This document shows positions 28,601 to 49,123 of a DNA stretch of 64,000 nt, piece after piece (within the stretch, counting starts at the first letter, position 1; each line of letters begins with the position of its first letter). The stretch comes from a virus: positions 87,554 through 151,553 of IMG/VR virus record IMGVR_UViG_3300028045_001344; one strand, written 5' to 3'. A model generated the notes under the pieces. The model saw nothing but the letters and a program-made list of their open reading frames with translations. It was not told the DNA's origin and searched no databases. A program made the translations under genes and the position numbers.

Positions 28601-31483
28601 ATCCCTGTTCTCCATAAAATCGTGGCCCGTGCGTAAACTGGTTTGAAACCTTGTATAAACGCCAACGTTCTTGTCGCCTTCTGTGTCTGCCATCCCAGGA
28701 AGAAACACGTTTTCAAAGGTTTGGGCTTTGATGGGGCTTGGGTTTGTGGTGTTATAGCGGAGAGTGTCTCGGCGGGCATCATCTGGGTTTTTTTTGTTGG
28801 ATTCCCAAAATGGCATTTGGCCCGTGGGTCGCTGACCCTGATCATAAAGCATACGAAATTCTGGGTTGATGATCTCCCGATTATTAACCGTGACTAATCG
28901 AGGAACGTCCTTTCCCTCGCCAAGCACCCTTGGTGATAAAAGACTTGGAACGGAGGAGACATCAGTAATAAACGAATTATAAATCCCATCAAAAGTTGTA
29001 TCAAGCACACGATCCATCATAAATGTATAAGAAGGATGATCCTGTTTGATTAGTCCTTCCACAAAATTACCATCAGCATCTATCGCACAATAAACTGGTG
29101 GGACAACTCCGTCTAACGGATCTTCTTTATCTAAAATTTCAGCAAGCTCATTGATGCGGCTTTTTGCTCGCTCGCGAGATGCATTTATTTGAGCATTACA
29201 AACTTCTAAACTTGTTATTCCTTTTCCTTCTAAAAGCTCACAGCGAAGAAAGTTATCATCTTCATCGCAAAGGCTTGTGGCAAGTATCGGCGTAAGATCT
29301 TCAAAATTGTCTATTTGTTTTTGTATTTCTTCTTCATCAACCAGTTTGCCAACGTTTCCAAAGAAATCGTTAATTTTATCTTCATCACCCAATAGGTCAC
29401 ATAAAGGACCATAAATCTCTGGGTTTATGGCACACATTTGATCGGCAGTAGATTGAACAATTTTTATTGTATCTTTTGTAGTTTTTCCCTGAAGCATTTT
29501 ATTTACTTCTCCGCAAGTGAGTGTGCTGCCAAGTGTATCCAGAAAGGAGCCAATAGGTGATTGTGTAATAGCCTGGGCTGTGGCTTGAGTTGCCTGTTGT
29601 ACCGCTTGTCCTGCTGCTTGCTGAACTTGTGACGCCGGTTGAGCCAATGGAGCTGTTAGTTTGTCCACTTGCTCATCTGTTACGTGAGATTGAAGATTAC
29701 TTAAAAATTTGCGTGATTGTTGAGAAATCCCTGGGGAAACAATACCGGCTTTCATGCCATCAAGTACGGCACCACCAACATTTTCTCCCATTACACCTAG
29801 CGTACCGGCAATTACGCCCGCAGTGTTTCCTTCACTAAGCATTTTGCCGATAGGAAGACTACCGAAATTTAACTTACATGGATCTCCGCAAGCCTCCAAA
29901 TACATCATTACAACTTGTTTGACCATTGATATAAGTGCTTTCTTGACTGCTTCTGCAATTGAAAGCAATATTTGTTCAACAATATCCCCCATGATATCGA
30001 CGGTGGGTATAATGTCGTCCAAACTTATAACAGGAATCTTTAATATTTTTACAACTTCACCCGCGAAGCGATTCACATCAAGCAAGAAGCTCTTTATCTC
30101 ATCTATGGGAAGATCTAGATTCAAGCATTCCACAGCAGCTTTCACGATATAGGTTATACCAAATTTATTCAAATAATGATAATAAACATCCTCAATACTG
30201 TTTATTGTATTGATTGTTTTATTCAGGTTTCCAATTACAGTATCGCCAACAAAATCTTTTGATTGTTTGCGAAACTCATTCATCTCTTTTTTTAATTCTT
30301 TAGACTTTAGTCTCCAAGATTCTTCACTTAAAGCTTTAGCATCTTTCGCAGAGTTTGAGTTAACTTTTTTTATCTCTGTTTCCATTTGAGCATTTTGATC
30401 TGGTGATCTCGGACGACCCACTGTATATTCAATTACTGGTGATGGAAATTTAATAAACTCAGTAATAAAAGTTTCCCAACCCATTGGTGGACTGCCGATG
30501 CCATCTTTTACTGTTGGTCGCTGTTGAGCTATTTGTGTTATTTTCTCTAAATGTTTATACAGATACATCGTGTTGCTTGTTATAAACATAGAATCACTAA
30601 ATGTACTAAAGCCAGCAGATAAATTCCGAAAGGAGTTTCCTTGATTTATTTGAGCATATTGTGGCAAATAGGCTGAACCTGTTAGTCCAGAACCCGACAT
30701 ACCCATCATAATAAGATCGGATTGAGATTCCGAGTAGAGATACCCATTTGTCCTAACTAGATCACGTAATACTGGTACAAACTCACGAAACCTCTCTGCT
30801 TCTTTCGCAAGATCGGCGTTATATACTTTTCCCTCAAAATCCATCATAACGCTATTATAATTTTCTAATAGTTGAGAAACCTTGGATACCTTTTTTTCTA
30901 GACCATAGGTGTTTAATTGAATCTCATCATAAACCGCAGGAGCCACAAATTTTTTCTCTGGAAGATTACTAAAAAGTGACTGGAAACGAAGATTGGATGA
31001 TTCTGGGGCTCCCACAGATGGAACACCACCAAATGCTGTAGATGTATCCAATTGAATTGAAGGATTAGAAAAGCTGTTGCTATAGTTCCCTGGAAGTATT
31101 TCTGGTATGGTTACTAATACTTTAATATTTGATGCAGGTCGCAAAGGAACATACAACCCCTGTGCTTCTTCTTCTGGTGTTCCGTTTTCTCCCGGTATAA
31201 TAACATCTGAAATTAATCCAGAAATAGTTTGGTCATCGGAGTCTTTATTATAAAAATCTAAAATAGAACGCAACCCTTCTTCTTTGTATGGCGACTTATC
31301 AGAAGGCACAAGATCATATTGAGCAATCCCAGTATCGACGGCAACACCATAATATCCTCCCACAGAACCAGACCGAGGGACAAAAAATGGTGTCTCACCT
31401 TCTGGCTTAGTCCAGTCTAATGAGATAAGAGGTTTTATATTCCGCCCGACTCGTTCAGTGTTTTTTTGATTAGCGTTAGACAT
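25601..31483 (-). CDS. Very large, largely helical hypothetical virion protein
   Basis: 1960-aa ORF between the spike and gp25-like genes; Q/A low-complexity patch; no family recognised. Confidence 0.5.
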   Translation of the reverse strand: MSNANQKNTERVGRNIKPLISLDWTKPEGETPFFVPRSGSVGGYYGVAVDTGIAQYDLVPSDKSPYKEEGLRSILDFYNKDSDDQTISGLISDVIIPGENGTPEEEAQGLYVPLRPASNIKVLVTIPEILPGNYSNSFSNPSIQLDTSTAFGGVPSVGAPESSNLRFQSLFSNLPEKKFVAPAVYDEIQLNTYGLEKKVSKVSQLLENYNSVMMDFEGKVYNADLAKEAERFREFVPVLRDLVRTNGYLYSESQSDLIMMGMSGSGLTGSAYLPQYAQINQGNSFRNLSAGFSTFSDSMFITSNTMYLYKHLEKITQIAQQRPTVKDGIGSPPMGWETFITEFIKFPSPVIEYTVGRPRSPDQNAQMETEIKKVNSNSAKDAKALSEESWRLKSKELKKEMNEFRKQSKDFVGDTVIGNLNKTINTINSIEDVYYHYLNKFGITYIVKAAVECLNLDLPIDEIKSFLLDVNRFAGEVVKILKIPVISLDDIIPTVDIMGDIVEQILLSIAEAVKKALISMVKQVVMMYLEACGDPCKLNFGSLPIGKMLSEGNTAGVIAGTLGVMGENVGGAVLDGMKAGIVSPGISQQSRKFLSNLQSHVTDEQVDKLTAPLAQPASQVQQAAGQAVQQATQATAQAITQSPIGSFLDTLGSTLTCGEVNKMLQGKTTKDTIKIVQSTADQMCAINPEIYGPLCDLLGDEDKINDFFGNVGKLVDEEEIQKQIDNFEDLTPILATSLCDEDDNFLRCELLEGKGITSLEVCNAQINASRERAKSRINELAEILDKEDPLDGVVPPVYCAIDADGNFVEGLIKQDHPSYTFMMDRVLDTTFDGIYNSFITDVSSVPSLLSPRVLGEGKDVPRLVTVNNREIINPEFRMLYDQGQRPTGQMPFWESNKKNPDDARRDTLRYNTTNPSPIKAQTFENVFLPGMADTEGDKNVGVYTRFQTSLRTGHDFMENRDRRDLLNSRSKILQFTIEDSLSTKLSTPTSGQSQIDQVKNYVKNELRKSWGGFGTSSDDLNSEQTLDGILGDVFRDSTYALFYTQFSEEPITGKENFAVSIQAGQQNVIWSKGFQQSDIPIKTQEVIEEKGLGETQLSPVNVPPLDPTHPPKTNSDFSLVERRFAEFLSNSWNLGESIYTIQDLGEIRKLPISERPGYANAIGNIIQTPGGASAHSLDPNTLLQIQGQNILSTGNQGELVGTLYDELLRGLQAMCLFEVSKSKLLEDNVFQSLNLTPQPCVSSDPSQEGNDNSLLDLTGIKNRLKEVYDMTKCIEPTMPNVCGTVSNKDNALEQSILYGLVQTTARVYALEAIIRTAPTFSALSITDIDEVFVEYVSTQAIEEIKAKFYLNSFLSQCLKSYNSLPQHQSPNNLSDPRKAFNWFVKNELAYAVTEILKLASLPSSPQAVDDLLFSAELVPNQIAPLHWLPQFNVSSSAPQSGNAGILRKPALQRLGQDFRLGDYGVASKEDIIGLKDWREGNIYLETYIRVEYKDNKSVDSTSAFPPPKYAPTYQPEDLPFDNRGVVDKNLFSTWMSGEFFSQTSMPIIPTTPVRLDSTIIAADDCAEQEIVIPGELAPLIATAPDPQKLGSYIKSLRYGLRLVCQVVNDTADNSRGITSQPIHQAMQNNYDVNNTKLNKSYHYKEEANAERIDAYTIPIVCVEKELPLDISVSDIRNDPNYFSDGYNNVYPELVTKIKETPEYSFIFDYCFPMDRLVSLTALYGITYSLPFPGLNNAFLGTKEQLRMSFSSVASSGDYKSRDLVFTNKAQANAAINGADIPGFDFSIIEQFFWGILKGAGEAFDPNIAVAKKIKDAMELIGPALTSAINRGKSSVGRLQGQSEEEIRKNQITECALNLPEIDIPLLLISFGLLPINIFGVPPLGIGVGPPITGLGAAYLAAFGHEELPGSRALKTADQKKRDRCNIKKLNGPDLTGKDDCSGQPSSPSNEINPSGKDECD

Positions 31484-35344: not shown

Positions 35345-36355
35345 TTATGCTTCATTGACATATAATAGATTCTTAATTCTTTCTGGTTCCCAGAAACCTT
35401 TATACCATAGTTTATCACTTAACTGATCTTTTTTTAAATCTTCTTTCATTGTATCAAGGATAAGATTTTCATAATGGTATAAGTATAATTCTTTGCCGTA
35501 GTACATCACACGTCGATCTTGTTCGTTTGCTCTGAGACATAAATCAACATCCTGATACGAAGCTTTAAGAGATGGACAAAAGCCACCGCTTTTCATATAC
35601 CACTCCGCGTCTATGATCAAAAAGGCGGCTGTTATAAACAATTCGCCTTTGTCGCAATTTACTTTTGGATCGTCCTTGGGATAACCTCGAAACATGTGTA
35701 AGGCAAATAATCCGGCTTCTCCTGGTCTTGGTCCAAACATCGAGCCAGCGTATTGAACCTTGTCTGCTCTATCGGGCTTATGATATAAAAAATCTTTGGT
35801 AGGATAAAGGAGCTTGGTTCCTGTGATTGTATTTTTGTTTTCAGTGTGCTTCTTATAAAGCACTGGTAACATCTCTGGATTATTTGTCCATAGATCTGAA
35901 CTCCACAAAATAATATCTTTTAGGTTTGGTGATTTCGTTTTCAGGGCGTGAGTTGCGAGATTGTGCAGCATTGAAAAATTAAATTGATTTGCGGTGTTAT
36001 CTACCCGCATATATGAACAGTCGCTTTCAAGAGCAATCGTTTTAATATGTTCTGTCTCTGAACGATCATCAACTATTAAGACGTTTGCAAAATCAAAAAT
36101 TTTGTTCTGCTTCATATTGTTCAAAGTAAATTGCAAAAGTTCTGCATTGTCCTTTATGCAAAGGAGGATGTGTGGTTTTTTATAATCGGTAGTTTCGGCT
36201 TCAATAAACTGACACTTGTATTCATTGGAAGTCGTTTTTAGATTATACGAATTAGAATAGAAGCTTTTTACCACATCATCTTCAGACTGTGTTACAGTGA
36301 ATTTGGATGGATTAATTTTCTTTTTAAAATTGTATACGTGTGTATGATTATTCAT
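35345..36355 (-). CDS. GT2-family glycosyltransferase
   Basis: LIVDDRS, FNFS..HN, LWSSD, GTKLLYP, YQDVDLCLR, YHYE. Start moved to ATG 36355 (RBS GAGGAG, overlaps the upstream stop). Confidence 0.8.
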   Translation of the reverse strand: MNNHTHVYNFKKKINPSKFTVTQSEDDVVKSFYSNSYNLKTTSNEYKCQFIEAETTDYKKPHILLCIKDNAELLQFTLNNMKQNKIFDFANVLIVDDRSETEHIKTIALESDCSYMRVDNTANQFNFSMLHNLATHALKTKSPNLKDIILWSSDLWTNNPEMLPVLYKKHTENKNTITGTKLLYPTKDFLYHKPDRADKVQYAGSMFGPRPGEAGLFALHMFRGYPKDDPKVNCDKGELFITAAFLIIDAEWYMKSGGFCPSLKASYQDVDLCLRANEQDRRVMYYGKELYLYHYENLILDTMKEDLKKDQLSDKLWYKGFWEPERIKNLLYVNEA

Positions 36356-38279
36356 TTTGCTCCTCAATGTAATATTTTTCTATATCATCTAAGACTTCTT
36401 TTGTATCCTCAAGGGTTTGATTCCCCAGTTGAGCACTTGGCTCCATTACGCACCCCTCTCCCCATTCATTCCATGAATTCATAAAAAGAAAGTTTTCAGA
36501 TTCATCAGGATTATCTTCGAGTAACGTATTATGTAACTGTTTCATTAGATAAAGCTTATATACTTCTCTTGATGTGCTAGAAAAAACATTAGCTTCAGAC
36601 TTTGAGCGTCTAGGGGTGTTATCCCAACCTGGGAAGAAGCCATTATAATAAGAGATATTTGCTTTGCGAACTTTTTCTCCTAATGTTGTATCTCGAATGG
36701 GAACATTTTTAGACCAGTTGATTAGTGTCTTTTGATTTCCTTTTGCCATAGTCATCTGATCGTAAAGGGCTTCTTTGTCAAAAATCGTAGAAACTCCTTT
36801 CCAATGTTCCAAAACTGATAAAGATTGATTGTGCCCCGAGAAATTAGGTTGAAATTCACACACACCATCCACACCATTAAATATCTCAGTTTCAAAATTC
36901 CCCAAACACTGAATTATGTAAATCCCATTCCAGCCTTGTTCCACGGCTCTAGTGTTCCACCACTCTATCATTTGAGGAAAAGGTTTAATATGCGGGGCGC
37001 GGTAAATTAAGAAAACAGGTTTATTGTTTATTTTTATATAATTCTTATGATTGAAGAAATGGAACAAATATTTAAAATGCTCATCCCACTCATTTATATT
37101 GCCATAACGTTGCTCAACCAGAACTTTGTCCTCTTTTCCATCCCAGTTTTTTGTCCAAGGTTCATTCGCCCAATTAAGACAAAAGGGTAGATCAGGTTCC
37201 CCATCTTTCAGCATTTTCTCCAAAGGCTTATATAACGCCCGACGGCCATTGAACCAATAATGATGATAACAAAATCCATAAACGCCCGCTTCTTTTGCCA
37301 AACGTGCTTGCAGCGCACGAGTTTCTTTATTCATTAGATCGTAATAGCCCAAAGCTGAGTGTGGATTCAAAAACTTTTGGTTATTAAACTTTGGCTTGGC
37401 TTTCCTTAGATTATCCCATTCAGTAAATCCGTCGCCCCATAAAATATCATTTAAATCCGATTGGTGATATTGAGGAAAATAAAAAGAAATAATTTTTGGC
37501 TTTGAGGTGGCAACCTTTTTGATGGGAAGAAGAAACAATGTGTATTTCATATGACGAACAATGGCGGAGAAAAATCTCTCGAAAGCATGAGCCATTGTCC
37601 CGTCTAGTGGTGGGGAGCCTTGAAAACTTTCAAAATTATTTAAATCACACGTATGCTTTTTAAAAAAGTTTAAAATATCTCCACGTACCCAGAACATTGT
37701 ACCTGCCACAAAACTCTTGGACTGAGGGTATGAAGCTTTGGGGCTGATTTTATATTTTTTACATAACTTTTCATAGTTTGCTTCGTTTGCGCCCATATCT
37801 TGGCACACATAATTTGCACAAGAAATCATCCCAACATCATGCTTCTGTTTGAAAATATCTACTATCTCTTGGATGCGCTCTGGGGTTCCTAAGAGAGTAT
37901 CTAATAAATCTTTCGTCCATTGATCCCCGGCTACTTCAAAAGGGTTGGTATTGTGTTTGCCCTTCTTAGTGTGAATTTTACATATATAATCATATCTTTT
38001 TTTAAGATTATTCGCGTGGTTTGCGGAGACTGTAAAGCCACCGGGGTCCATTCCCTTGTTTTGGGAAATAGTATAGTAGAAATTATCGCCTTTCAGGTTT
38101 TGATATAGTTCGATTATTTTAGATATGTTACGTGAATTTTGTAGGCCGTCTTTTGTGTCGCGGCTAAAATTTACATACAGATCATATTCGAAAGGGATGT
38201 TTTCTAAATATGTATTGATTTGAGGTAACACATCCAAGTGAAAGGCGTGTATAAAAACGGCAACTTTTGGTGAATTCAT
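36348..38279 (-). CDS. Fusion: RgpF (rhamnan synthesis F)-like domain plus WbsX/GH99-like domain
   Basis: N-terminal half: VAVFIHAF, KIHTKK, FVAGTMFWVR, DGTMAHAFER. C-terminal half: FYFPQYH, GFTEW, GFCYHHYWF, WANEPW, PGWDNTPR, NSWNEWGEG. Confidence 0.85.
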   Translation of the reverse strand: MNSPKVAVFIHAFHLDVLPQINTYLENIPFEYDLYVNFSRDTKDGLQNSRNISKIIELYQNLKGDNFYYTISQNKGMDPGGFTVSANHANNLKKRYDYICKIHTKKGKHNTNPFEVAGDQWTKDLLDTLLGTPERIQEIVDIFKQKHDVGMISCANYVCQDMGANEANYEKLCKKYKISPKASYPQSKSFVAGTMFWVRGDILNFFKKHTCDLNNFESFQGSPPLDGTMAHAFERFFSAIVRHMKYTLFLLPIKKVATSKPKIISFYFPQYHQSDLNDILWGDGFTEWDNLRKAKPKFNNQKFLNPHSALGYYDLMNKETRALQARLAKEAGVYGFCYHHYWFNGRRALYKPLEKMLKDGEPDLPFCLNWANEPWTKNWDGKEDKVLVEQRYGNINEWDEHFKYLFHFFNHKNYIKINNKPVFLIYRAPHIKPFPQMIEWWNTRAVEQGWNGIYIIQCLGNFETEIFNGVDGVCEFQPNFSGHNQSLSVLEHWKGVSTIFDKEALYDQMTMAKGNQKTLINWSKNVPIRDTTLGEKVRKANISYYNGFFPGWDNTPRRSKSEANVFSSTSREVYKLYLMKQLHNTLLEDNPDESENFLFMNSWNEWGEGCVMEPSAQLGNQTLEDTKEVLDDIEKYYIEEQNE

Positions 38280-38677
38280 TTCTCCAAGTATTTTACCACT
38301 TTATCATGAATTTTTGAATCAACATTTTCTTTCCACGAATCATCCTCGTTATTTATTTGATTGCGAATTTGTGTTGCCGAAATAAAGCCAATATCTTTCG
38401 GTGGAACATGTTCAACAATTCCATATCCAACTCCGCGTCCATAATTGACCGATTCAATATCTGGTATGGATAAAATTTCAACATCGTCATCGGCATACGC
38501 AGTTTCTAGCATATCAATAGTTTGCTCAGTTGTAAATGGATTTTTTTCATCAGGAGGAATATCTCTTACGCAAATAAGAACAGGCACTCCTTGATTTAGT
38601 TTTTGACCGATAAGCCATTTGTGACCATTGTGTAAAGGTTGCCACCTACCTATAAACATTGCTCTTTTGTTATTCAT
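38276..38677 (-). CDS. Small HIGH-superfamily nucleotidyltransferase; candidate minimal ATP sulfurylase
   Basis: 133 aa; FIGRWQPLHNGH, YGRGVG, ISATQIR; in the same operon as cysC and the sulfotransferases. Confidence 0.75.
   Translation of the reverse strand: MNNKRAMFIGRWQPLHNGHKWLIGQKLNQGVPVLICVRDIPPDEKNPFTTEQTIDMLETAYADDDVEILSIPDIESVNYGRGVGYGIVEHVPPKDIGFISATQIRNQINNEDDSWKENVDSKIHDKVVKYLEK
38356..38404. repeat. Direct repeat (3' part of the nucleotidyltransferase gene); second copy at 39870..39918
   Basis: Core tgtgttgccgaaataaagccaatatcttt(c/g)ggtgg is 34/35 identical. Confidence 0.9.
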
Positions 38678-39042
38678 TTATTTTCTCCTTGTTCAATGAA
38701 ATCAATTGTTTTGTGCCATGCGTTCGGATCTGTTTTATCGAACCTGATAGCATGGTCATCAATATAATATTTGGCTGGTTGTTTGATGTTTGTAACATCA
38801 TCAAAGAAATGAGATAAATTATATTTTTCCAGCCACTTCCTAATAGGTTTAACTGGTCGGCTTGATACTATTATCAAACGATAGCCAGCATCCTTTAGCT
38901 TTTGTAAAGAAGGAATAGAGCCTGGCATTGGTGGATCGTAAGCATTATCTAGACCTTGAAATCCTTTGGAATATTGATGAATGACTCCATCAAAATCTAT
39001 TGCAATAGTATTGTTTTTAAATTCTGTTCCAACTTCCTTCAT
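38674..39042 (-). CDS. Small capless HAD-superfamily phosphatase (intact copy)
   Basis: 122 aa; motif I DFDG, motif II VSSR, motif III K, motif IV YIDD. Confidence 0.8.
   Translation of the reverse strand: MKEVGTEFKNNTIAIDFDGVIHQYSKGFQGLDNAYDPPMPGSIPSLQKLKDAGYRLIIVSSRPVKPIRKWLEKYNLSHFFDDVTNIKQPAKYYIDDHAIRFDKTDPNAWHKTIDFIEQGENK
38771..39042. repeat. 272-bp direct repeat (HAD gene); second copy at 39911..40182
   Basis: Ungapped alignment at offset 1140; about 31 mismatches by hand count (~89% identity), mostly synonymous. Confidence 0.95.
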
Positions 39043-39818
39043 CTTATATCCTCAATCGAATATTTATAACATTCTATGTCTTCCCTATATTTTTTATTAA
39101 CCAAAGAAATACATTTATCATTATAAAAGCATATATCAGGCGGAAGTGCATTATGTGGCAAATCTGACCATTTCCAACAAGAGACATTTTTTTTCCACTC
39201 AATGTCCTTCGTAGCAAAACGTCCGGTCATATAATTCATCTCTCTCAGGATGTTGGGATCAAAAGAAGTCCCAAAGGATATATTGACTTTGCTTATATCT
39301 TTTTCAATTTGTTCCAATTTACACACATGATCAAAGAAGTTTTCATATTTATCTTCTATAGATCTTTTTTGCGGTTGCCAATGTTGATCATCCTTTTTCT
39401 TATTACTTATGACCTCTAAAAATTCCACAAAGGACAAATCATCGCCCAAATTATTACGACCTGATATTTGCTTCTTGCGCCCGAACGCATGTCGATAAGA
39501 ACTTACAGCCCGACTAAAAGGATTTCTTACTATTTTTAGCGTTAAAATTTGTGGTGATAACACTTCGTCTAAAAATAAAGGCTTGACTTTTGTTTTATAA
39601 TATTCGTGATTACGGTACTTGTGAATCCAAATATATTTTTTTAAAGCATATTCTAAAACACCAATTTCCTTGTAAAACATTAACATCACTAAGACACTTC
39701 CACACTTCGCATTCCAATCTATAAAAATTTTTTTTTCAAAATCATAGAGAGGGGGCGGTCCACCAAGCCATGGAAATATTTTTTGACGCGGATTATAAAA
39801 AACTTCTCTACCCTTCAT
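39039..39818 (-). CDS. Sulfotransferase, Sulfotransfer_2 (carbohydrate sulfotransferase) type
   Basis: 5'-PSB WNAKCGS, 3'-PB VRNPFSRAVSSY, LSFVEFL, HWQPQ. Start moved to ATG 39818 (RBS AAGGGG). Confidence 0.85.
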   Translation of the reverse strand: MKGREVFYNPRQKIFPWLGGPPPLYDFEKKIFIDWNAKCGSVLVMLMFYKEIGVLEYALKKYIWIHKYRNHEYYKTKVKPLFLDEVLSPQILTLKIVRNPFSRAVSSYRHAFGRKKQISGRNNLGDDLSFVEFLEVISNKKKDDQHWQPQKRSIEDKYENFFDHVCKLEQIEKDISKVNISFGTSFDPNILREMNYMTGRFATKDIEWKKNVSCWKWSDLPHNALPPDICFYNDKCISLVNKKYREDIECYKYSIEDIR

Positions 39819-40182
39819 CTTGTTCCCCTTGAATATAAAGCTGATTTTGAATGGTTGACCACAATGGGTTTTGATTGTAAATATGTGTTGCCGAAATAAA
39901 GCCAATATCTTTGGGTGGTTGTTTGATGTTTGTAACATCATCAAAAAAATGAGATAAATTATATTTCTCTAGCCAATTCCTAATAGGTTTAACTGGTCGG
40001 CTTGATACTATTATCAAACGATAGCCTTCATCCTTTAGCTTTTGTAAAGAGGGGATGGCACCGGGCATTGGTGGATCATATGCATTGTCCAATCCCTGAA
40101 ATCCTTTAGAATACTGATGAATAACGCCGTCAAAATCTATTGCAATAGTATTATTTTTGAATTCTGTTTTAACTTCAATCAT
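39808..40182 (-). pseudogene. Chimeric HAD copy lacking motif IV, fused in frame to a nucleotidyltransferase fragment
   Basis: Matches 38674..39042 up to TNIKQP, then continues PKDIGFISAT from 38276..38677; YIDD is lost. Confidence 0.7.
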
Positions 40183-40849
40183 TTAATATTACCAATTTCC
40201 CATATACCTTTTCTTCTATTTTAGACCAAGCAGGATTATTTTTGTATATGGTGTTGATATCCTCTTGTGTAAACCACTCGTTAAGATTTTTTTTATATTT
40301 CTTGTTCTTTACGTTTACATTTGCTTTAATACTTTTAATTTTCTTTTTTCTATCTTCATCAATTTCCGTAAAATTACTTGCAACCTTGATAAAATCTTCT
40401 GCCAGATAATCAGTCCGTATCCAATAATCAACTTCGTGAGAACTGAAGGAGGCGAGCCATTCATCTCCTGTGTGGATTTTGAACAACTTACCATCGGAAT
40501 GAATCTGCTTGATTTTTCCTTGTCTCAGAAACTCGTATTGTTCTTCATCGAAAGGTTGTTTTATGTTATTTAGACCATAAGTATCAAAATGAAAACACCA
40601 ACTTAAAATCCAATATGGTAGTGGGCGTATATTTAAGATCTTCTTTTTGTTGGAGAAATCTTTACCAAGATTCTCTGCCATGTAATTAAATCCAGCATGT
40701 TGAATTCCTATGTGCTTATGTTTCTTCGGAATTGGAGTGTGTCCATTATAATATTTTATCAGTGATGGAAACAATAAAAACATATCGGCGGTCGATGACC
40801 CCGCAGTTTTTGGTATATGACCCCATACAAATTTTTCTCCATATATCAC
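40175..40849 (-). CDS. Sulfotransferase-family protein
   Basis: 224 aa; HIPKTAGSS (5'-PSB) and IRPLPYWILSW (3'-PB-like). Confidence 0.75.
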   Translation of the reverse strand: MIYGEKFVWGHIPKTAGSSTADMFLLFPSLIKYYNGHTPIPKKHKHIGIQHAGFNYMAENLGKDFSNKKKILNIRPLPYWILSWCFHFDTYGLNNIKQPFDEEQYEFLRQGKIKQIHSDGKLFKIHTGDEWLASFSSHEVDYWIRTDYLAEDFIKVASNFTEIDEDRKKKIKSIKANVNVKNKKYKKNLNEWFTQEDINTIYKNNPAWSKIEEKVYGKLVILND

Positions 40850-40854
40850 TCTAC

Positions 40855-41565
40855 TTAAGTGTTTTTTGTAATGAAATTTTCTAATTGTTCAACCGACATT
40901 TCCAAACTTAATTCATTTGTATCAATTACTAAATCAGGGCATTCAGGTTCTTCGAACGGATCTGAAATGCCTGTAAAATTTTGTATCTCACCCGATAATG
41001 CTTTGGCGTATAATCCTTTGACATCACGTTCAATGCATTTCTCTACAGGACATTTTATGAAAACAGTTAGTGCTCCGCAAGTTTTCTCAAGTTCTTCTCT
41101 TAGATCCTCATAGGGATTGATTGCCGACATAATTGTAACAACATTATTACGCGAAAGAACTTTCCCAACAAAACCCAATCTTCGAATATTAGTATTTCGG
41201 TCTTCTTTCGAAAATCCCAAATCCTTACATAAACCTTCCCGATATTCATCCCCATCAATAATCTCTACCTTGAATCCCTTTGTCTTTAATTTTTTTTCAA
41301 CTGCCCGAGCAAGAGTTGTTTTTCCGGCTCCCGACAATCCTGTCATTTGTATAAACATACCTTTTGTTTTACCCCACTTAATAAAATTCCATAATCGTTC
41401 ATGAAGAAAGAACATAAACACCTGAATAGTATTATAGCATAAAGCTATCAAACTTGTAGATTTAATATTACCTGTAGTTATAAAGGCAACCGCGACTAGA
41501 ATAATAATGGCAATCAAACGCCATGTTATTGCTTTCCAAAAGCTTCTTTGTCTTGAATCAATCAC
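40855..41565 (-). CDS. cysC: Adenylyl-sulfate (APS) kinase with an N-terminal DUF2061-like membrane domain
   Basis: TGLSGAGKTT, DGDEYR, LGFSKEDR..NIRR, RDVKGLY, FTGISDPFEEP. N-terminal RSFWKAITWR..HERLW..IKWG. Confidence 0.92.
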   Translation of the reverse strand: MIDSRQRSFWKAITWRLIAIIILVAVAFITTGNIKSTSLIALCYNTIQVFMFFLHERLWNFIKWGKTKGMFIQMTGLSGAGKTTLARAVEKKLKTKGFKVEIIDGDEYREGLCKDLGFSKEDRNTNIRRLGFVGKVLSRNNVVTIMSAINPYEDLREELEKTCGALTVFIKCPVEKCIERDVKGLYAKALSGEIQNFTGISDPFEEPECPDLVIDTNELSLEMSVEQLENFITKNT

Positions 41566-41589: not shown

Positions 41590-42618
41590 TTACTTAATCG
41601 CATAATATTTCATAAAAAAGCCCATCATTTTTTCGACACATTCTTTGCTCAAATGTCTCCCATCAGGACTATATCCCCCATTCTCCATCACAGGAGAAAA
41701 AATTTCTTTTACAATATCATAGGAAGGAAAATACCAAAGATCATTTCTATTGTGGCCGTCGGCTTCACGGAAAAATTCATCAACTGAGCCTCGCAAAATT
41801 GATTTTGTTACTTGACTTGCCGTCAAGCACGAAACAGGTCTGAAAGTTGCGTTTAAAGGAACAGGAGAGATAGTAAAAACTACTTGTGCATCTGGATTAT
41901 GTTTCTTTATCAAATTAAATATTTTATGAAAATTTTCTTTGTTTTCCGCAAAAGAAGATACACGGCATCCATGTATTTTTTCGTCATATTGACCGTCAGG
42001 TATCGCTCGCCAAAAAACATCATTAGTTTCCTTATTATACCAAACTTCACCCACTCCCACAGTTATTACAAATACATTGGTTTCTTTAAGTTCCTTTTCC
42101 ATAAAAACTCGCAACTTTTCGGTCTTTTTTATTACTGTGGCGTCTTCGCGGTGCCAAGTTTGCTCATAAAAAGTTTTATTTTCAAATACCCATTCGAAAA
42201 GTTGGCGAACAGCAAATGTACTATTGACCCCGGCGCGGAAGACCACATTATCTGTAAGCTTAAATCCCTGCTTCACCATATATTGTCTAATCTCCCAAGC
42301 AAAACAACTTCCGAAAGTTGTTACGACTGTTTCTTTTTCAATAAAAGGCTCATCTGGAATCCAGCCGCGAAACAAAATGTTTTGGTATTGTTTTTCATTA
42401 TGTAAGGTTTCCATGTTTCCTGGGTAAAATTCCCAAGTCCCTTTCGCCCAACGCCTGGGCGTCAAATGACCAAGAAGATGAGCCCCATCATCCTCATTTT
42501 CTTTTACAAATGTCGCATTTGAGAGATTTGCTCTTAATTTCTGGGGGTTTGTTGGCAGTAGGCTCGAACTACCCGTCACGTTTGTCGCGTGAGCTAATGA
42601 TCGTTTTTTCTTTTTCAT
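41590..42618 (-). CDS. GSCFA-domain protein (SGNH-like)
   Basis: TFGSCFA, ITVG..EVW, FTISPVPL.AT, YFPSYD, DGRH. ATG 42618 has RBS AAGGAG; the ORF track starts at 42726. Confidence 0.8.
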   Translation of the reverse strand: MKKKKRSLAHATNVTGSSSLLPTNPQKLRANLSNATFVKENEDDGAHLLGHLTPRRWAKGTWEFYPGNMETLHNEKQYQNILFRGWIPDEPFIEKETVVTTFGSCFAWEIRQYMVKQGFKLTDNVVFRAGVNSTFAVRQLFEWVFENKTFYEQTWHREDATVIKKTEKLRVFMEKELKETNVFVITVGVGEVWYNKETNDVFWRAIPDGQYDEKIHGCRVSSFAENKENFHKIFNLIKKHNPDAQVVFTISPVPLNATFRPVSCLTASQVTKSILRGSVDEFFREADGHNRNDLWYFPSYDIVKEIFSPVMENGGYSPDGRHLSKECVEKMMGFFMKYYAIK

Positions 42619-42838
42619 AAGCGCTTGACTCCTTTTTAAAAAACTGGGGGCGACGAACACATCGGGGTTCGCCTCTTGATAAAACAAGTCCAGCTTTGAT
42701 GAACTGATTAACATATATATCACCAACTTGTGAGTATTTATCTAGCCAATTCATCCTCTTCCCCCCGGAAAATAATTTGAATGAGTCTGGTAGAGACAGT
42801 AAAGTTTATTATCGGACATTGTTTCCTTGCGCGAAGCC

Positions 42839-43648
42839 TCATTTCTGCAACTTGTTTTTAATAACATACAAATCATGGAAGTCACATAATCCTTTTCGAT
42901 AATATTTCACGAGATCTCCGCAACCGCTTTGTCTGACAAAGTTGGAAACAAATTCTCTTGAAACAAAGGTGCTACCATAATAATCTCCTTTAAGGCGACC
43001 TTTTGTTTCGTTCCTTTTTGCGAAAAGAAACCCCGCTTCCGTGAAATCAAAATTGGTGCGGTCTTCGGCTGGTCGAAGGTGCAAACCATGAGTTGAAAAC
43101 ACTAAAGTTCCATTAGGGCTTAACAACGAGTAAATCTTTTTATACCATTGTTTCCAGTGTTCAAGCGAAAGGTGTGTAAACAAAGAACAGACAAAAATTG
43201 TATCGTATTTTTCGTCATGTTTTAGATCATCGGCTAGTTTAGTGGAATAAAACCCCTTCACACCAAAACTTTTAATATTAAAATCTACTGCCATAGGATC
43301 AATATCGGAAACTGTAACTTTGTTTTCCCAACCAAATTTTTTAGTTAAAAAACGAGTACACCTACCATAGCCTGATGCAAAATCAAGCACAGTTCCGTCA
43401 CCCCACCAAGGAGCCCCCGGTTTTTGCGCATTAACAAGAGCCATTACCAATGAATCTAATATCCTTTCCCCAATTCGAAAATATGTCATAAATGCGTCTT
43501 CGTCAGATACTTTCCCGCGACCAGAACCATAAAGATACATTTCATCTTTATGATTTATACTAAGAACCACATTACCTTTATAATCTCCCTTAAGTGAGTT
43601 TAATATTTTTTTTCTTAAATCTTCTTTAATATCTACAACGCTTTTCAT
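42839..43648 (-). CDS. Class I SAM-dependent methyltransferase
   Basis: VLDFASGYGR, SDID, YDTIFVCSLFTHL, LSPNGTLVFSTHG. Confidence 0.88.
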   Translation of the reverse strand: MKSVVDIKEDLRKKILNSLKGDYKGNVVLSINHKDEMYLYGSGRGKVSDEDAFMTYFRIGERILDSLVMALVNAQKPGAPWWGDGTVLDFASGYGRCTRFLTKKFGWENKVTVSDIDPMAVDFNIKSFGVKGFYSTKLADDLKHDEKYDTIFVCSLFTHLSLEHWKQWYKKIYSLLSPNGTLVFSTHGLHLRPAEDRTNFDFTEAGFLFAKRNETKGRLKGDYYGSTFVSREFVSNFVRQSGCGDLVKYYRKGLCDFHDLYVIKNKLQK

Positions 43649-43672
43649 TATTTACTCTTTCCTTGTTTTTAT

Positions 43673-43702
43673 ATTATAGCGCATTTATGCCAATAACCTC
43701 AA
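43673..43702 (-). promoter_or_regulatory. Possible sigma70-type promoter
   Basis: TTGAGG-N18-TATAAT upstream of ATG 43648. Confidence 0.35.
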
Positions 43703-44398
43703 TCATACAAAACTTGTATCCTTTGGAACCTGTGCGTATACTGTACTTCTCGTTGTTTGTGTAATATTCTCGCTTCTATCTTTTGCTATATCATAAATAG
43801 TTCGGCGATTATTTCCCACATGCACCACACCTCTTTTATCACTCAATATTTCCTCTAAAACTTTTGGCGCAATTATATCCACATAATCTTTTGAACTCCA
43901 CTGGTCCACAAACGCAGCTTCATAAGGAAAGTCGTAACCAAAAAAACTTGTCCTAATGACTAAACTATTTTCATAAGTTCTTACCAGCAATTCGGCTGCG
44001 GCTTTTGTCTTTGCGTACTTTGACAACGGATTAATTGGGTCATCAGTTGTGTAGTTTCCCTTCTCTCCGTCAAAGACGTAATCAGTTGATATAAAGACTA
44101 GCTTTTTTCCCAAATCTCTACAACTTTTCAAGACATTCAGTGTCCCTAATACATTCACTTCCCAAGCTCGTGAAGGATCGTTTTCTGTGGCTTTTACATC
44201 GGTAATTGCGGCAGAGTGAACTACTGTATCACAATCGCGCGAAGCCTTGATATAATTGTGAATTTGATAAGGATTTGTTATATCACAATATTTAGATGCT
44301 GGTGCTATAAACTCTACATCATGGGCTTTGGATATTTTTATTAGCTCGGTGCCCAGTGTTCCCGAACCTCCTGTAAGGAATATTTTTTTTAAAACCAT
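43703..44398 (-). CDS. rmlD: NDP-4-dehydrorhamnose reductase
   Basis: TGGSGTLG, HSAAITDV, ISTDYVFDG, YAKTK; follows rmlC-rmlB; start set at ATG 44398. Confidence 0.88.
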   Translation of the reverse strand: MVLKKIFLTGGSGTLGTELIKISKAHDVEFIAPASKYCDITNPYQIHNYIKASRDCDTVVHSAAITDVKATENDPSRAWEVNVLGTLNVLKSCRDLGKKLVFISTDYVFDGEKGNYTTDDPINPLSKYAKTKAAAELLVRTYENSLVIRTSFFGYDFPYEAAFVDQWSSKDYVDIIAPKVLEEILSDKRGVVHVGNNRRTIYDIAKDRSENITQTTRSTVYAQVPKDTSFV

Positions 44399-45279
44399 TT
44401 GTATATCCCTTTGAAATGTTTTGGTTCCCACCCGATCTTTCTTATTTTTTTAGAACTCACAGAATAACGCAAATCTTGACCCCAACGATTATCTACAAAC
44501 TTAACCGACCGTCGATCTTTTTCTTTCCACTTTAGCATTGTATCCACAACTTCTAGATTGGTCATGTGGTTTTCGGCTGCAATATTATAGGTTTGGTTTT
44601 TGATGCCAGCCTCGATGATATGAAATAATGCCTCCACATTGTCTTTGACATATGTCCAGTCGCGAACATAAGAGCCATCGCCGTGAACTGGGATTTGCTT
44701 TCCACTTTGTAGAGAACTCAAACACTTGGGAATTAGTTTTTCTTCATATTGGCGAGGACCATAGTTATTCGCGCTCCTGGTTATAACATATTCCAAACCA
44801 AAAGTTCTATAATATGATAATACTAACATTTCCGCTGCGGCTTTGGTTGCTGAATATGGGTTTGATGGAGTTAATTTATCTTCTTCAGTAAAAGAGCCTT
44901 CCAAACGATCACCATATACTTCATCTGTGCTGATTTGAAAAAACAAAGGTCGATCATATTCTGGCTTTCCGCGAACAAGTTCTAAAAGATTATGAACTCC
45001 TAAAATATTGCTTTTGACAAAAGGACTTGTATCACGGATCGAATTATCGACATGACTTTCAGCCGCAAAATTAATAATTACATCGCATGATGGAAGATGC
45101 TTTAGTTCGGATATATCTTCTTGAATAAGGGTATAATTTTTGTCTGAATCCCAAGGTAAAGTTTTGTGGGAAGCATAACCCATCTTATCAATGTCGATAA
45201 TGGCAATATTTCGTTCTAGCGCGGCTTCAACAAAATGCGAGCCAATAAACCCCCGACCGCCTGTTATAATAAACTTCAT
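44389..45279 (-). CDS. rmlB: dTDP-glucose 4,6-dehydratase
   Basis: TGGRGFIGSH, FAAESHVDNSI, STDEVYG, PYSATKA, NNYGPRQ, RDW.YV.D. Confidence 0.93.
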   Translation of the reverse strand: MKFIITGGRGFIGSHFVEAALERNIAIIDIDKMGYASHKTLPWDSDKNYTLIQEDISELKHLPSCDVIINFAAESHVDNSIRDTSPFVKSNILGVHNLLELVRGKPEYDRPLFFQISTDEVYGDRLEGSFTEEDKLTPSNPYSATKAAAEMLVLSYYRTFGLEYVITRSANNYGPRQYEEKLIPKCLSSLQSGKQIPVHGDGSYVRDWTYVKDNVEALFHIIEAGIKNQTYNIAAENHMTNLEVVDTMLKWKEKDRRSVKFVDNRWGQDLRYSVSSKKIRKIGWEPKHFKGIYKWF

Positions 45280-45809
45280 ACTTCCTCATAAAAGAATTTA
45301 GGATCACTTGAATATTCTCTAAATGACTGTGCTCCTAAATCTTTCTCACTAAGTATAGCACTTCTCTCATCAGTTTTTAATTTAATTTTAAGGTCGGGAT
45401 CTTTTATGCTGATTGCTGATTCACCATCTTTGCTATAATAAGAAGAACATTTATACATTACGTGTGAATCTTCAAGTGCCTCAAAACCATGAGCATAGCC
45501 TGGTGGAACCCACAACACGTTTTTATTTTCCTCGGATAATTCGAACTTCCAACACTCACCATATGAAGGGGAGTTATATCGAATGTCCACAATATAATCT
45601 ATTATCTTTCCTGATATTGTTTGCACAAGCTTTCCCATTGGTTTGTCCCACTGGTAATGTAATCCGCGAACGACGCCTTTGTGGGAATAAGAAACATTGT
45701 CTTGATAAAATGTTTCTCCAACAAAAAGATGTTCACGATGAGAAAAGGATTCATAAAAATATCCCCGATTATCGGGATAAGGTTTGTTGGTGAATAATCT
45801 ATAGTTCAT
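45276..45809 (-). CDS. rmlC: dTDP-4-dehydrorhamnose 3,5-epimerase
   Basis: DNRGYFYE, QDNVSYS..GVVRGLHYQ, VDIR..SP, WVPPGYAHGF. Confidence 0.93.
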   Translation of the reverse strand: MNYRLFTNKPYPDNRGYFYESFSHREHLFVGETFYQDNVSYSHKGVVRGLHYQWDKPMGKLVQTISGKIIDYIVDIRYNSPSYGECWKFELSEENKNVLWVPPGYAHGFEALEDSHVMYKCSSYYSKDGESAISIKDPDLKIKLKTDERSAILSEKDLGAQSFREYSSDPKFFYEEV

Positions 45810-45833
45810 GATTATTTTCTCTTTTATTTATCC

Positions 45834-46625
45834 CTAACATAAAATAGCCTTACAAACAGGCGTTGCCTTTTTTTGGCTTTTTTCTAAATCACCATTTGTT
45901 TTTACATACTCTTCATAATCTACAAAAATTTCCGCCCTTTCGGGTCGTATCAGCGGAGGATGACACGGAAAACTCACAAAGCTTTCCCACGTCTCAAACT
46001 CAGGAGATATATTGTCAGTTCCATCATCTAATAAATCACTTCTTATAAAAAAAACATCTAGAGTCTTGATCATGGCGACAATAGAATACCCATGTTTATC
46101 ACCCACCATTTTCAATGCTTTTAAGGAAGCTCCATAGCCCCGATCAAATTCCCATCGTTCATTCGGATCATTTGGAAAAGTTATAGCCACATCCAATGGG
46201 TAATTAGCATTATATTCCACACTCACAACTCTCGGTCTATATTCTTCCAAAACCGCCTTAAATAACCACAAATCGGTAGAATCAACATCAATGCTAACAT
46301 AATCGGGTTCGGTAGGAACTTTATACTTTTTAAAAAGTTTACAGATATTGTCTGAAGTAAGATAGTGTTTATGTAAATTAATTTTTATATTTTCATTGGC
46401 TCCATCCAAAAGCAAACACTTCCATCCTTTATTCAAGACAAGACTGGCAACATTAGGGCCCGTTCCTCCAAGAAATTCGGTATTATTAAAACCAAACTCA
46501 ACACAAAAGGGTGGACTATTTTTGGTTCCTATGTTCTCAAAAATAGTTTCCAAAATACCGTCTTGACCTCCCTGAGAATGTACCTTACGAGCGTGGTTGC
46601 TCAAATTTACTAACCACTTTTTCAT
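45834..46625 (-). CDS. FkbM-like methyltransferase-fold protein
   Basis: SQGGQDGI, VEFG, SIDVDSTD.W, PRVVSVEYN. Confidence 0.65.
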   Translation of the reverse strand: MKKWLVNLSNHARKVHSQGGQDGILETIFENIGTKNSPPFCVEFGFNNTEFLGGTGPNVASLVLNKGWKCLLLDGANENIKINLHKHYLTSDNICKLFKKYKVPTEPDYVSIDVDSTDLWLFKAVLEEYRPRVVSVEYNANYPLDVAITFPNDPNERWEFDRGYGASLKALKMVGDKHGYSIVAMIKTLDVFFIRSDLLDDGTDNISPEFETWESFVSFPCHPPLIRPERAEIFVDYEEYVKTNGDLEKSQKKATPVCKAILC

Positions 46626-46638
46626 TTAATATTCTCCT

Positions 46639-47625
46639 TTATCCTTCCCTAATCGAGTGGTCTGCACTCAAAAATTTATAATCTGCCCGAAACATCATTT
46701 CGCAAAGCTGTTCGAAATGGATTTCTGGCTTCCACTTTAAAATCGTTTTGGCTTTGGAATTGTCGCCTAGAAGTAACGGGACTTCGTGGGGTCTAAAAAG
46801 CCTTTCATCTATTTCCACAAACTTATCAGGATTTAATCCAGCATGTGAAAAAACACATTCTAAAAAATCCCTAACCGTATGAGTTTCGCCAGTGGCAATT
46901 ACATAATCATCGGGGATCTCTTGTTGAAGCATTTTCCACATAGCTTTTACATAATCTCCTGCAAATCCCCAGTCGCGTTTTGCATCCAAATTTCCGAGAA
47001 ACAATTTATCTTGAAGTCCAAGTTTGATGTTCGCGGCAGCTAATGTAATTTTTCGTGTGACGAATGTTTCCCCACGCATTGGAGATTCATGATTAAAAAG
47101 AATTCCGCTGGACGCATGGATGCCATAACTTTTTCTATAATTTCTTATTAAATTATGTGCAAAAGTTTTCGCACAAGCATAAGGTGACGCGGGCATAAAT
47201 TTTGATTCTTCATTAAGGGGAATGTTGGGATTATCTCCAAACATTTCGGACGAAGATGCTTGATAAAATCTCGCGTGAGGACAAACGGTTTTCATAGCAT
47301 TGAGCATTCTTAAAGTTCCCATCGCAATTCCATCAACTGTGTGTTCGGGAAGGTCAAACGAAACTCTAACGTGTGATTGAGCCGCCAGATTATATATTTC
47401 GTCGGGTTGAATTTTGATCAATAAATCCCAAATTGCAGATGTGTCATTCAGGTCAAAATACAATAACTTAAAATTTTTGTGTGTAAGAACACTGTCCACT
47501 CTATCCGTACTAATAAGAGAAGAACGTCTTTTGAACCCATACACTTCATAATCCTTTTCTAATAAAAGTCGCGAAAGATACGCACCGTCTTGACCCGTAA
47601 CGCCGGTTATTATCGCCTTCTTCAT
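46639..47625 (-). CDS. gmd: GDP-mannose 4,6-dehydratase
   Basis: ITGVTGQDGAYL, YNLAAQSHV, QASSSEMFG, FNHESP, ETFVTRKIT, RDWG; start ATG 47625. Confidence 0.95.
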   Translation of the reverse strand: MKKAIITGVTGQDGAYLSRLLLEKDYEVYGFKRRSSLISTDRVDSVLTHKNFKLLYFDLNDTSAIWDLLIKIQPDEIYNLAAQSHVRVSFDLPEHTVDGIAMGTLRMLNAMKTVCPHARFYQASSSEMFGDNPNIPLNEESKFMPASPYACAKTFAHNLIRNYRKSYGIHASSGILFNHESPMRGETFVTRKITLAAANIKLGLQDKLFLGNLDAKRDWGFAGDYVKAMWKMLQQEIPDDYVIATGETHTVRDFLECVFSHAGLNPDKFVEIDERLFRPHEVPLLLGDNSKAKTILKWKPEIHFEQLCEMMFRADYKFLSADHSIREG

Positions 47626-48545: not shown

Positions 48546-49081
48546 TTAACACTCTCTATATTCAAGCTTACCAAAATTCCATTTTCTTTATCCATGTGAG
48601 GAAGATACGCTTGACTAAAGTCATCGACATAAAAGTGGTCTGTCTTCCTCCAATCATATGGACGAATATTTTTAAACCCCGTTTCTTCTAAATCTTTCTG
48701 CATCTCACTATAATCCCAGCACCAAAAGTGATTATTTTCTGGATAATCTTGACCTCCATATAATAAACCGGATATATCTCTGAGGTTTTTTGTTTTTAAA
48801 TAATGTTGTACCAATTTTTCAAAATCTGGGACTGCTATACGGAGGATTCCTCCAGGTTTTAAAATTTCGTGCCATCTCTGTAAAACTTGACGATAGTCCC
48901 ATCGCGAAAAGTGTTCTAAAACATGGCAAGCATAAATAACATCGACTGAGTTTTTTTTGAAAGAACGCAAAAATCGTACATTATCCACCACGTCTACTGA
49001 AGGGAGGAATCTACAATCTACATTGATATATCCTTCAATCTCTTTATTACCGCACCCCAAGTGTAATTTAACTTCTACCAT
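48533..49081 (-). CDS. Class I SAM-dependent methyltransferase (Methyltransf_11-like)
   Basis: KLHLGCG, YINVD, HVLEH, LKPGGILRIAVPD. Confidence 0.88.
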   Translation of the reverse strand: MVEVKLHLGCGNKEIEGYINVDCRFLPSVDVVDNVRFLRSFKKNSVDVIYACHVLEHFSRWDYRQVLQRWHEILKPGGILRIAVPDFEKLVQHYLKTKNLRDISGLLYGGQDYPENNHFWCWDYSEMQKDLEETGFKNIRPYDWRKTDHFYVDDFSQAYLPHMDKENGILVSLNIESVKSKF

Positions 49082-49123
49082 TTTGCCTCCTGAATAAAAT
49101 AACCTATTTTATTATATATTTCT

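Follow-up and report, generated by a model that had tools for sequence, protein, structure and literature searches.

A phage glycan island encodes a probable sulfation cassette and a candidate noncanonical ATP sulfurylase

Introduction

What use does a phage make of an adenosine 5′-phosphosulfate (APS) kinase, and where does the APS come from? The question is raised by a stretch of 64,000 nucleotides (positions 87,554 to 151,553 of IMG/VR virus record IMGVR_UViG_3300028045_001344; here called the window), in which a cysC gene and two putative sulfotransferase genes (ST1 and ST2) lie among glycosyltransferase genes. The window is the final 64 kb of a contig of 151,553 bp, which is ~83% complete by CheckV estimate and is that of a large marine T4-like phage. 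A sequence-only reading of the window had proposed a self-contained sulfation module at positions 38276-41565. Computational analysis of the locus, of its relatives in viral and cellular genomes, and of predicted structures leads us to consider it reasonably probable that the genes form a phage-encoded sulfation cassette in a glycan-biosynthesis island, in which a nucleotidyltransferase (NTase), CysC, ST1, ST2, and a HAD-family phosphatase would act jointly.

The pathway that we propose would run in four steps. First, the NTase would act as a minimal ATP sulfurylase, derived from an enzyme like nicotinamide mononucleotide adenylyltransferase (NMNAT), and adenylylate sulfate (ATP + sulfate → APS + pyrophosphate [PPi]). 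Second, a membrane-anchored DUF2061::CysC fusion, the family of which is clear, would convert APS to 3′-phosphoadenosine 5′-phosphosulfate (PAPS). Third, ST1 and ST2 would use PAPS to sulfate the glycan of the neighboring rhamnose and fucose genes and glycosyltransferases, at two positions or acceptors. Fourth, and more tentatively, HAD may clear the inhibitory product 3′-phosphoadenosine 5′-phosphate (PAP), or it may hydrolyze PPi and so pull the first step forward.

Results and discussion

Six coupled genes outside sulfur assimilation

The sulfation genes are embedded in an island of ~21 kb (35345-56845), the genes of which are co-oriented on the minus strand. In order of transcription, the run and the one subdomain within it are as follows.

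40855-41565, minus strand: DUF2061::CysC, 236 amino acids, APS kinase at residues 68-215 (APS_kinase, 2.1e-53; DUF2061, 1.3e-11)
41386-41535, minus strand: DUF2061 two-helix membrane hairpin, at about residues 11-60 of CysC (Pfam DUF2061, 1.3e-11)
40175-40849, minus strand: ST1, putative divergent sulfotransferase, 224 amino acids (fold and motifs)
39808-40182, minus strand: HAD′, chimeric remnant, 124 amino acids (HAD matches; direct repeats D1 and D2)
39039-39818, minus strand: ST2, Sulfotransfer_2 family, 259 amino acids (PF03567, 3.9e-13, 50.5 bits against a cutoff of 22)
38674-39042, minus strand: HAD, predicted capless phosphatase, 122 amino acids (Hydrolase, 30.9 bits, and HAD_2, 24.8 bits, both above cutoff)
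38276-38677, minus strand: NTase, HxGH nucleotidyltransferase, 133 amino acids (Pfam CTP_transf_like, 2e-6)

Successive junctions in that order measure +5, −8, −11, −4, −4, and −4 nt, the last being that of the NTase into an RgpF/WbsX glycosyltransferase gene, and the run is thus overlap-coupled. All six open reading frames (ORFs) that the sequence-only reading had placed here as a coupled run were confirmed. The same reading had found the window to lack a canonical sat, cysD/cysN, cysH, and sulfite reductase, and the statement holds for the whole contig: there was no match to ATP-sulfurylase (PF01747, Sat), PAPS_reduct (CysD/CysH), GTP_EFTU (CysN), or NIR_SIR across the 151.5 kb.

The absence of these genes bears on how the viral cysC is to be interpreted. 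In some bacteria, CysC takes part in PAPS-dependent sulfate assimilation, and on that general ground the gene could be a conventional auxiliary metabolic gene that boosts assimilatory sulfate reduction by the host for cysteine. Because the contig lacks ATP sulfurylase, PAPS reductase (cysH), cysDN with its EF-Tu-type GTPase, and sulfite reductase, however, this cysC is not in an assimilation context. Moreover, it is overlap-coupled with two sulfotransferase genes inside a glycan island, and sulfotransferases recur next to the module in unrelated phages. We consider an auxiliary role in cysteine synthesis highly improbable and conclude, in agreement with the sequence-only reading, that cysC lies outside sulfur assimilation. 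Should the NTase prove to be an ATP sulfurylase, viral cysC, which is routinely counted as an assimilatory auxiliary gene, would in many phages be a part of glycan sulfation, at the phage-host interface.

An APS kinase and two sulfotransferases

Profile searches indicated that CysC exceeds the cutoffs of both PF01583 (180.9 bits; cutoff, 21.1) and TIGR00455 (200.4 bits; cutoff, 138.7). The P-loop GxSGxGKST (G76-T84), the DGD..R motif (D104-D106/R109), and the lid motifs FS..DR..N.RR (F118-R129) and KGLY (K183-Y186) were invariant in an alignment of 21 CysC relatives (alignment A4). Hydrophobic stretches at residues 12-30 and 36-54 lie within the DUF2061 hairpin region, and a tblastn search with CysC returned just five distant matches. 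We conclude that CysC is a bona fide APS kinase by family, from which phosphorylation of APS to PAPS is predicted.

ST2 also falls within a known family. Besides its Sulfotransfer_2 match, it matched PHROG 3347, "galactose-3-O-sulfotransferase" (4.2e-6), and carries the motifs of the 5′-phosphosulfate binding (5′-PSB) and 3′-phosphate binding (3′-PB) sites, NAKCGS and VRNPFSRAVSSY. Its start is most likely the ATG at 39818 rather than the TTG at 39944.

ST1 had no family match in Pfam, NCBIfam, or PHROG, and Sulfotransfer_1 was matched by 3 of 44 members of its family or their fusion partners (the family has 525 representatives). The AlphaFold2 (AF2) model of ST1 had a mean predicted local distance difference test (pLDDT) score of 81, and all 50 of its top PDB entries were PAPS sulfotransferases, heparan-sulfate 2-O and 6-O enzymes among them (VIA Z of 9 to 10.3 over 174 to 190 residues). 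WGHIPKTAGSS resembles a 5′-PSB motif and NIRPLPYWILS a 3′-PB motif, with family forms WGH.PKTGG.S and NIRRLP.W.LS; K14, G17, R75, and S83 show complete or nearly complete conservation, and a PK.GG.S-type loop and an R-x7-S motif are present. Predicted fold and both PAPS-binding motifs therefore point to a sulfotransferase. Of the two sulfotransferases claimed at first sight, ST2 is established by its family match, whereas the assignment of ST1 stands on fold and motifs.

The NTase as a candidate ATP sulfurylase

A PAPS-forming kinase needs APS, and the gene proposed to provide it encodes a protein of just 133 residues. The Pfam scan of the NTase returned solely CTP_transf_like and HIGH_NTase1. 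It carries GRWQPLHNGH and ISATQIR, which belong to a set of invariant family motifs comprising GR.QP.H.GH, RD, PDIESVNYGRGVGY, and ISAT.IR. Among 44 diverse relatives, F8, G10, R11, Q13, P14, H16, G18, H19, R38, D39, A101, and R105 are invariant, as is the block P72-DIESVNYGRGVGY-85, and S100 and T102 are nearly so. The HxxH motif (H16-N-G-H19) is invariant and the fold is a HIGH-type Rossmann fold. R11 and H19 share their numbers, though not by alignment, with the mutants R11A/K and H19A of solved NMNAT entries, and R105 occupies a C-terminal motif of the S.T..R type, to which the R136A mutant of the same entries maps, a correspondence by motif rather than alignment. Because the catalytic-type residues R11, H16, H19, and R105 are invariant, the machinery for adenylyl transfer looks intact.

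The closest described relatives are the NadM-type NMNATs (PDB 1f9a, 1ej2, and 2qjt), which share with the NTase the fold and the GR.QP.H.GH and S.T..R motifs. The likeness is confined to one half of the protein: the N-terminal ~75 residues align (E, 1e-9 to 1e-10), whereas the C-terminal half does not. Similarly, curated NMNAT models covered residues 4-79 only and scored far below cutoff (TIGR01527, 36.8 bits against 181.2; NF002243, 49.2 against 127). Some 30 residues of NMNAT are missing, with the invariant PDIESVNYGRGVGY signature in their place, and the constant genomic partner is an APS kinase rather than NAD-salvage genes. With Sat-type ATP sulfurylase (PF01747; PDB 8a8g), the NTase has in common the HxxH nucleotidyltransferase fold superfamily and, as proposed, the reaction; it differs in having no match to the Sat hidden Markov model (HMM), only ~71 columns aligned with 8a8g, and about one-third of the size of the catalytic enzyme. 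The Gly-Arg-Gly loop of the NTase presumably recalls the GRD loop of Sat. Source databases label the NTase "cytidyltransferase-like" or, wrongly, "adenylylsulfate kinase," the ESM Atlas placed it in unnamed "cytidyltransferase-like" viral clusters only, and in the literature searched, no paper described an ATP sulfurylase of cytidylyltransferase-like type or a sulfation module in a phage.

Gene neighborhoods in other viruses indicated a partner for the NTase. A search of viral contigs gave 512 relatives, and in the best 80 loci the NTase was directly beside, or fused to, an APS-kinase-family gene in 78. Fusions of kinase and NTase measure 358 amino acids in L028 and L031, 366 in L059 and L060, and ~299 in L030, L038, and L044 (L numbers denote loci and G numbers genomes). 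The partner kinases were either canonical (~220 bits) or of a short form (58 to 74 bits), and APS_kinase was the best Pfam family for both. Moreover, the pair is flanked in other phages by sulfotransferases from three Pfam families; in distant loci these are Sulfotransfer_3/_1 (16 loci, of the L020 type) or Sulfotransfer_2 (L027 and L035). Local profiles detected a sulfotransferase-like ORF no more than 8 kb away in at least 30 of the 80 loci, and each of four near-complete genomes without an adjacent sulfotransferase had a sulfotransferase-like match elsewhere, two of these being weak. A predicted complex of the CysC kinase domain with the NTase scored 0.00, which speaks neither for nor against binding.

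DUF2061 recurs with the kinase and the NTase as a third conserved partner, either fused to CysC or, often, as a separate ORF of 75 to 146 amino acids (e.g., L020:8401-8841). It is found beside the pair in phages and also in some bacteria (L119 and L128), and a literature search found no paper on its function.

The association extends to cellular genomes. At least 523 NTase loci were present in GTDB species genomes, from Thermodesulfobacteriota/Dadabacteria, Acidobacteriota, Bacteroidota, Marinimicrobia, Omnitrophota, Planctomycetota, Marine Group II archaea, the candidate phyla radiation (CPR), and Nanoarchaeota. In ~60 of the best 80, representing more than 10 phyla, the NTase was adjacent or fused to an APS kinase, and the surrounding genes were housekeeping genes rather than those of a prophage. 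Of 35 NTase-bearing cellular genomes, 34 encoded an APS kinase, 1 encoded Sat, and 2 encoded a real CysD, leaving 31 in which the kinase is retained though no APS source is known. An APS kinase serves no purpose without its substrate, and with the known sources lacking, the NTase is most simply read as the supplier of APS. The proposal that the NTase is the sulfate-activating step, made initially from the window, thus gains strong comparative support from viral and cellular loci alike.

Marine Group II archaea, many of them represented by metagenome-assembled genomes, offered a comparison between sources of APS. An APS kinase was found in 30 of 101 genomes. Nine have a CysN-CysC protein of 642 to 644 amino acids; these are exactly the genomes with CysD, and none has the NTase. 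In the other 21, the kinase is in the same ~300-amino-acid frame as the NTase (e.g., L143:7500-8384, a fusion of 294 amino acids) or beside it, and none has CysD. Sat was found in 0 of the 101. Other Marine Group II genomes contain a separate NMNAT-type match of ~183 amino acids, which covers the N-terminal half of the profile only and favors regarding the NTase as a family apart from NMNAT. We conclude that in these Marine Group II genomes, APS kinase is partnered by the NTase or by CysDN but never by both. In Marinimicrobia, the NTase was present in 4 of 121 genomes, too few for a test of complementarity.

The arrangement has precedents in its logic. In Sat-CysC and CysN-CysC pairs, such as a 588-amino-acid Sat-CysC ORF in G008 and the CysN-CysC of Marine Group II, adenylylation is likewise followed by 3′ phosphorylation, and the genes are adjacent or fused as they are among NTase relatives. 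Human PAPSS1/2 are bifunctional PAPS synthases. Unlike PAPS synthases, the NTase system pairs the kinase with an NMNAT-like domain of 110 to 135 amino acids that has neither a PUA-like domain nor a GTPase subunit, and the phage kinase bears the DUF2061 membrane hairpin. We infer that the NTase is a noncanonical ATP sulfurylase, and we lean, by a narrow measure, toward a third, hitherto unrecognized ATP-sulfurylase class that supplies APS in many phages and in cellular lineages otherwise seeming to lack sulfate activation. This phage would use it, together with the membrane-anchored CysC, a HAD that clears PAP, and exchangeable sulfotransferase cassettes, to make a sulfated glycan independently of the sulfur metabolism of the host. 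Marine Group II, Marinimicrobia, Thermodesulfobacteriota/Dadabacteria, Omnitrophota, and CPR, among others, would be such lineages. Should this reading of the NTase hold, an enzyme class of only ~130 residues would be added to those known for a textbook reaction, and genome-based sulfur-cycle annotation would shift for abundant marine lineages whose "orphan" APS kinase now has them scored as lacking sulfate activation.

Possible supply of APS by the host

A number of observations weigh against an ATP sulfurylase, and several of them favor an alternative in which PAPS synthesis and glycan sulfation by the module draw on APS from the ATP sulfurylase of the host. The NTase would then perform neighboring chemistry, perhaps the adenylylation of a different phosphate or phosphoester acceptor or the recycling of nucleotides derived from AMP or PAP. 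The NTase is indeed closest to NMNAT and phosphopantetheine adenylyltransferase (PPAT), and it matched no ATP-sulfurylase HMM, PF01747 included. Its AF2 model has a pLDDT of 82, but the family-specific NYGRGVGY loop falls below 50 and is disordered. Foldseek placed NMNAT and PPAT on top and the one solved ATP sulfurylase among its matches (8a8g) at rank 50. Neither this search nor the PDB sequence profile discriminates ATP sulfurylase from NMNAT or PPAT function, and evidence beyond structure is therefore needed to assign the substrate.

Distribution among phages also tells for host APS. In a reverse sample of 80 viral APS-kinase loci, the NTase was sought within 6 kb and found in 36, about half being without it. 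Among 43 records lacking a nearby NTase, the gene occurred elsewhere in 2, and it was nowhere in 9 of the 11 records at least 90% complete; five of these NTase-less near-complete records were checked, and Sat and CysD were absent as well. Complete or near-complete relatives with DUF2061::CysC, often with HAD, lack the NTase, Sat, and CysD (L174 [G291], L183 [G298], and L182 [G297]). Since such genomes have none of the three, many phages, including close DUF2061::CysC relatives, must use APS from the host, and the NTase would be an add-on that frees the pathway from it. The description of the module as self-contained in the sequence-only reading does not generalize to viral cysC.

The nearest homologues in cultured phages, from Xylella and Stenotrophomonas, also count against an ATP sulfurylase. 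A tblastn search with the NTase returned distant cultured-phage matches only (≤38% identity). L082:4590-5330 (Xylella phage Bacata) and L083:4593-5324 (Stenotrophomonas phage DLP_6) encode fusions of ~245 amino acids that join a weakly scoring APS-kinase-like P-loop domain to an NTase-like domain. They are annotated "kinase" or "adenylylsulfate kinase," and the Bacata copy adjoins a gene with a COG3236 domain; this distant branch may do something else. Among cellular genomes, the NTase of Thermodesulfobacteriota/Dadabacteria is not next to cysC, and a small number of evolutionary events may account for the pattern in Marine Group II.

As a separate observation, L064:7586-8384 and similar loci (L070-L081) have an APS-kinase-like gene of ~150 amino acids overlapping an NTase of 112 to 128 amino acids, beside ThyX and RimK-like genes, and no sulfotransferase was detected near loci of this type.

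An NTase with a neighboring activity would not account for the APS kinase retained by 31 of the 35 NTase-bearing cellular genomes in the face of no known APS source, nor for the mutual exclusion of the NTase and CysDN in Marine Group II, where the ~183-amino-acid NMNAT-type match is distinguishable from the NTase. We consider exclusive reliance on host APS at this locus rather unlikely and retain the NTase as the candidate ATP sulfurylase.

HAD and its recombined copy

HAD has motifs I, II, and IV (DFDGV, VSSR, and YIDD). It matches PHROG 1238 and bears a weak likeness to polynucleotide kinase-phosphatase PHROG 415 and to a PpaX-type pyrophosphatase model. In the viral APS-kinase sample, 21 of 80 loci had HAD next to CysC or fused to it, and the NTase is missing from 8 of these 21; in other phages HAD is fused to the C terminus of the kinase (L040, 321 amino acids; L027; and L058). 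Because HAD stays with CysC in those 8 loci, it tracks the kinase, which favors a PAP phosphatase and makes a pyrophosphatase dedicated to the NTase less likely. T4 polynucleotide kinase-phosphatase likewise combines a P-loop kinase with a capless HAD, as in the L040 fusion, an architecture that suggests 3′-phosphatase chemistry on PAP; unlike the T4 enzyme, the kinase of the phage module is a canonical APS kinase. Our tentative first choice is that HAD is a PAP 3′-phosphatase that would relieve product inhibition of the sulfotransferases, an assignment in which we place somewhat less than even confidence, and a pyrophosphatase is the second choice and unlikely.

HAD′ had been counted as a component of the module, a claim that does not survive comparison with two direct repeats.

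D1: 38767-39056 (5′ part of HAD) and 39907-40196, 87% identical
D2: 38356-38404 (inside NTase) and 39870-39918, 92% identical

The first part of HAD′ corresponds to HAD codons 1-89; an in-frame stretch of 49 nt from the NTase (codons 92-107, PKDIGFISAT...) follows, and the remainder is unrelated sequence. The junction between HAD′ and the NTase fragment lies at a CCA(C/G)C(C/G)AAA microhomology, and as the sequence past codon 89 becomes NTase fragment, the acidic pair (DD) of motif IV is missing. Over the 89 codons, HAD′ and HAD differ by 20 synonymous and 5 nonsynonymous changes. On this ratio we reject a recent tandem duplicate decaying in place, in favor of a copy that accumulated its changes elsewhere while still functional and was then brought in by recombination. 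HAD′ is, on its sequence, a nonfunctional recombination scar and not a working paralogue; the proposed event is one that carried a sulfotransferase cassette, along with a diverged copy of HAD-NTase, into the slot between cysC and HAD.

Consistent with such exchange, the cassette between cysC and HAD varies in close relatives within a fixed frame. The order is cysC-HAD-NTase in L002, Sulfotransfer_3-cysC-HAD-NTase in L004, cysC-Sulfotransfer_2-sulfotransferase-like gene-HAD-NTase in L006, and cysC-sulfotransferase-like gene-HAD-NTase in L007. The scar also shows that sulfotransferase specificity is exchanged among related phages at a fixed slot, as expected under selection for host range or recognition. 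In L004, the HAD frame continues into a TylF/Methyltransf_24 O-methyltransferase domain (L004:6963-7979, a 338-amino-acid ORF), the result of a genuine fusion or else of the loss of a stop codon.

The glycan island and the acceptor

The remainder of the island bears on what is sulfated.

36348-38279, minus strand: RgpF/WbsX glycosyltransferase, downstream flank, overlap-coupled to the NTase (Pfam Glyco_tran_WbsX, 5e-102; RgpF, 2e-31)
41590-56845, minus strand: GSCFA gene, methyltransferases, RmlD/RmlB-like/RmlC, GDP-mannose dehydratase, GDP-fucose-synthase-like epimerase/reductase, and further NodZ-like, Asn-synthase-like amidotransferase, GT77-like, and GT4 glycosyltransferase genes

The rhamnose and fucose synthesis genes, the methyltransferases, and more glycosyltransferases all lie upstream of the sulfation run, and the island as a whole adjoins, and is directly upstream of, late and structural genes, including those for a gp55-like sigma factor and a baseplate protein. 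Virus-encoded nucleotide-sugar synthesis, glycosyltransferases, and methyltransferases occur together in cyanophage lipopolysaccharide (LPS) gene clusters and in chlorovirus and mimivirus glycosylation. The present island likewise has a nucleotide-sugar pathway and adds a block for sulfate activation and sulfotransfer, on which, in a phage glycan island, a literature search found no paper. At the sequence level, the module had no blastn match among GenBank phages.

The gene context is what suggests a rhamnose/fucose glycan of the virion, serving in shielding or mimicry as the sequence-only reading had it. Sulfation could instead be directed at the host envelope (LPS, capsule, or an S-layer glycan, e.g., in superinfection block or release) or at a small molecule. 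The lipid-carrier priming transferases Bac_transf and Glycos_transf_4 had no match on the contig, which leaves the acceptor pathway undefined and fits the host-directed alternative, as do the membrane anchoring of the kinase through DUF2061 and the free swapping of sulfotransferase cassettes between related phages, a pattern of host-range and serotype traits. Set against it are the position of the island directly upstream of the gp55-like sigma factor and baseplate genes and the fact that the island makes its own nucleotide sugars, which fits a phage-directed glycan and is no proof of one. A virion-protein glycan and a host-envelope target are both possible acceptors for the proposed cassette; the second, taken with a small molecule, we regard as doubtful.

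Candidates for a virion acceptor lie among the baseplate and tail genes, where two ORFs encode 3847 amino acids (10361-21904) and 1960 amino acids (25601-31483). They are probably fiber- or adhesin-like structural proteins, and possible glycan acceptors; a PHROG search of the tested ORFs neighboring them returned no match.

Other features of the window

Among the products encoded in the window are a baseplate wedge protein of the T4 type and a late sigma factor resembling gp55. The nearest cultured relatives of the wedge protein are in Microcystis phage Mel-JY01 and the Flavobacterium "immuto" phages, at ~30% identity. Directly upstream of cysC is a gene for a GSCFA-family protein of 378 amino acids (41590-42726). 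Just past the glycan island, a fusion of a PIN domain to PhoH (441 amino acids, 58426-59751) stands beside a PD-(D/E)XK nuclease gene (56833-57618).

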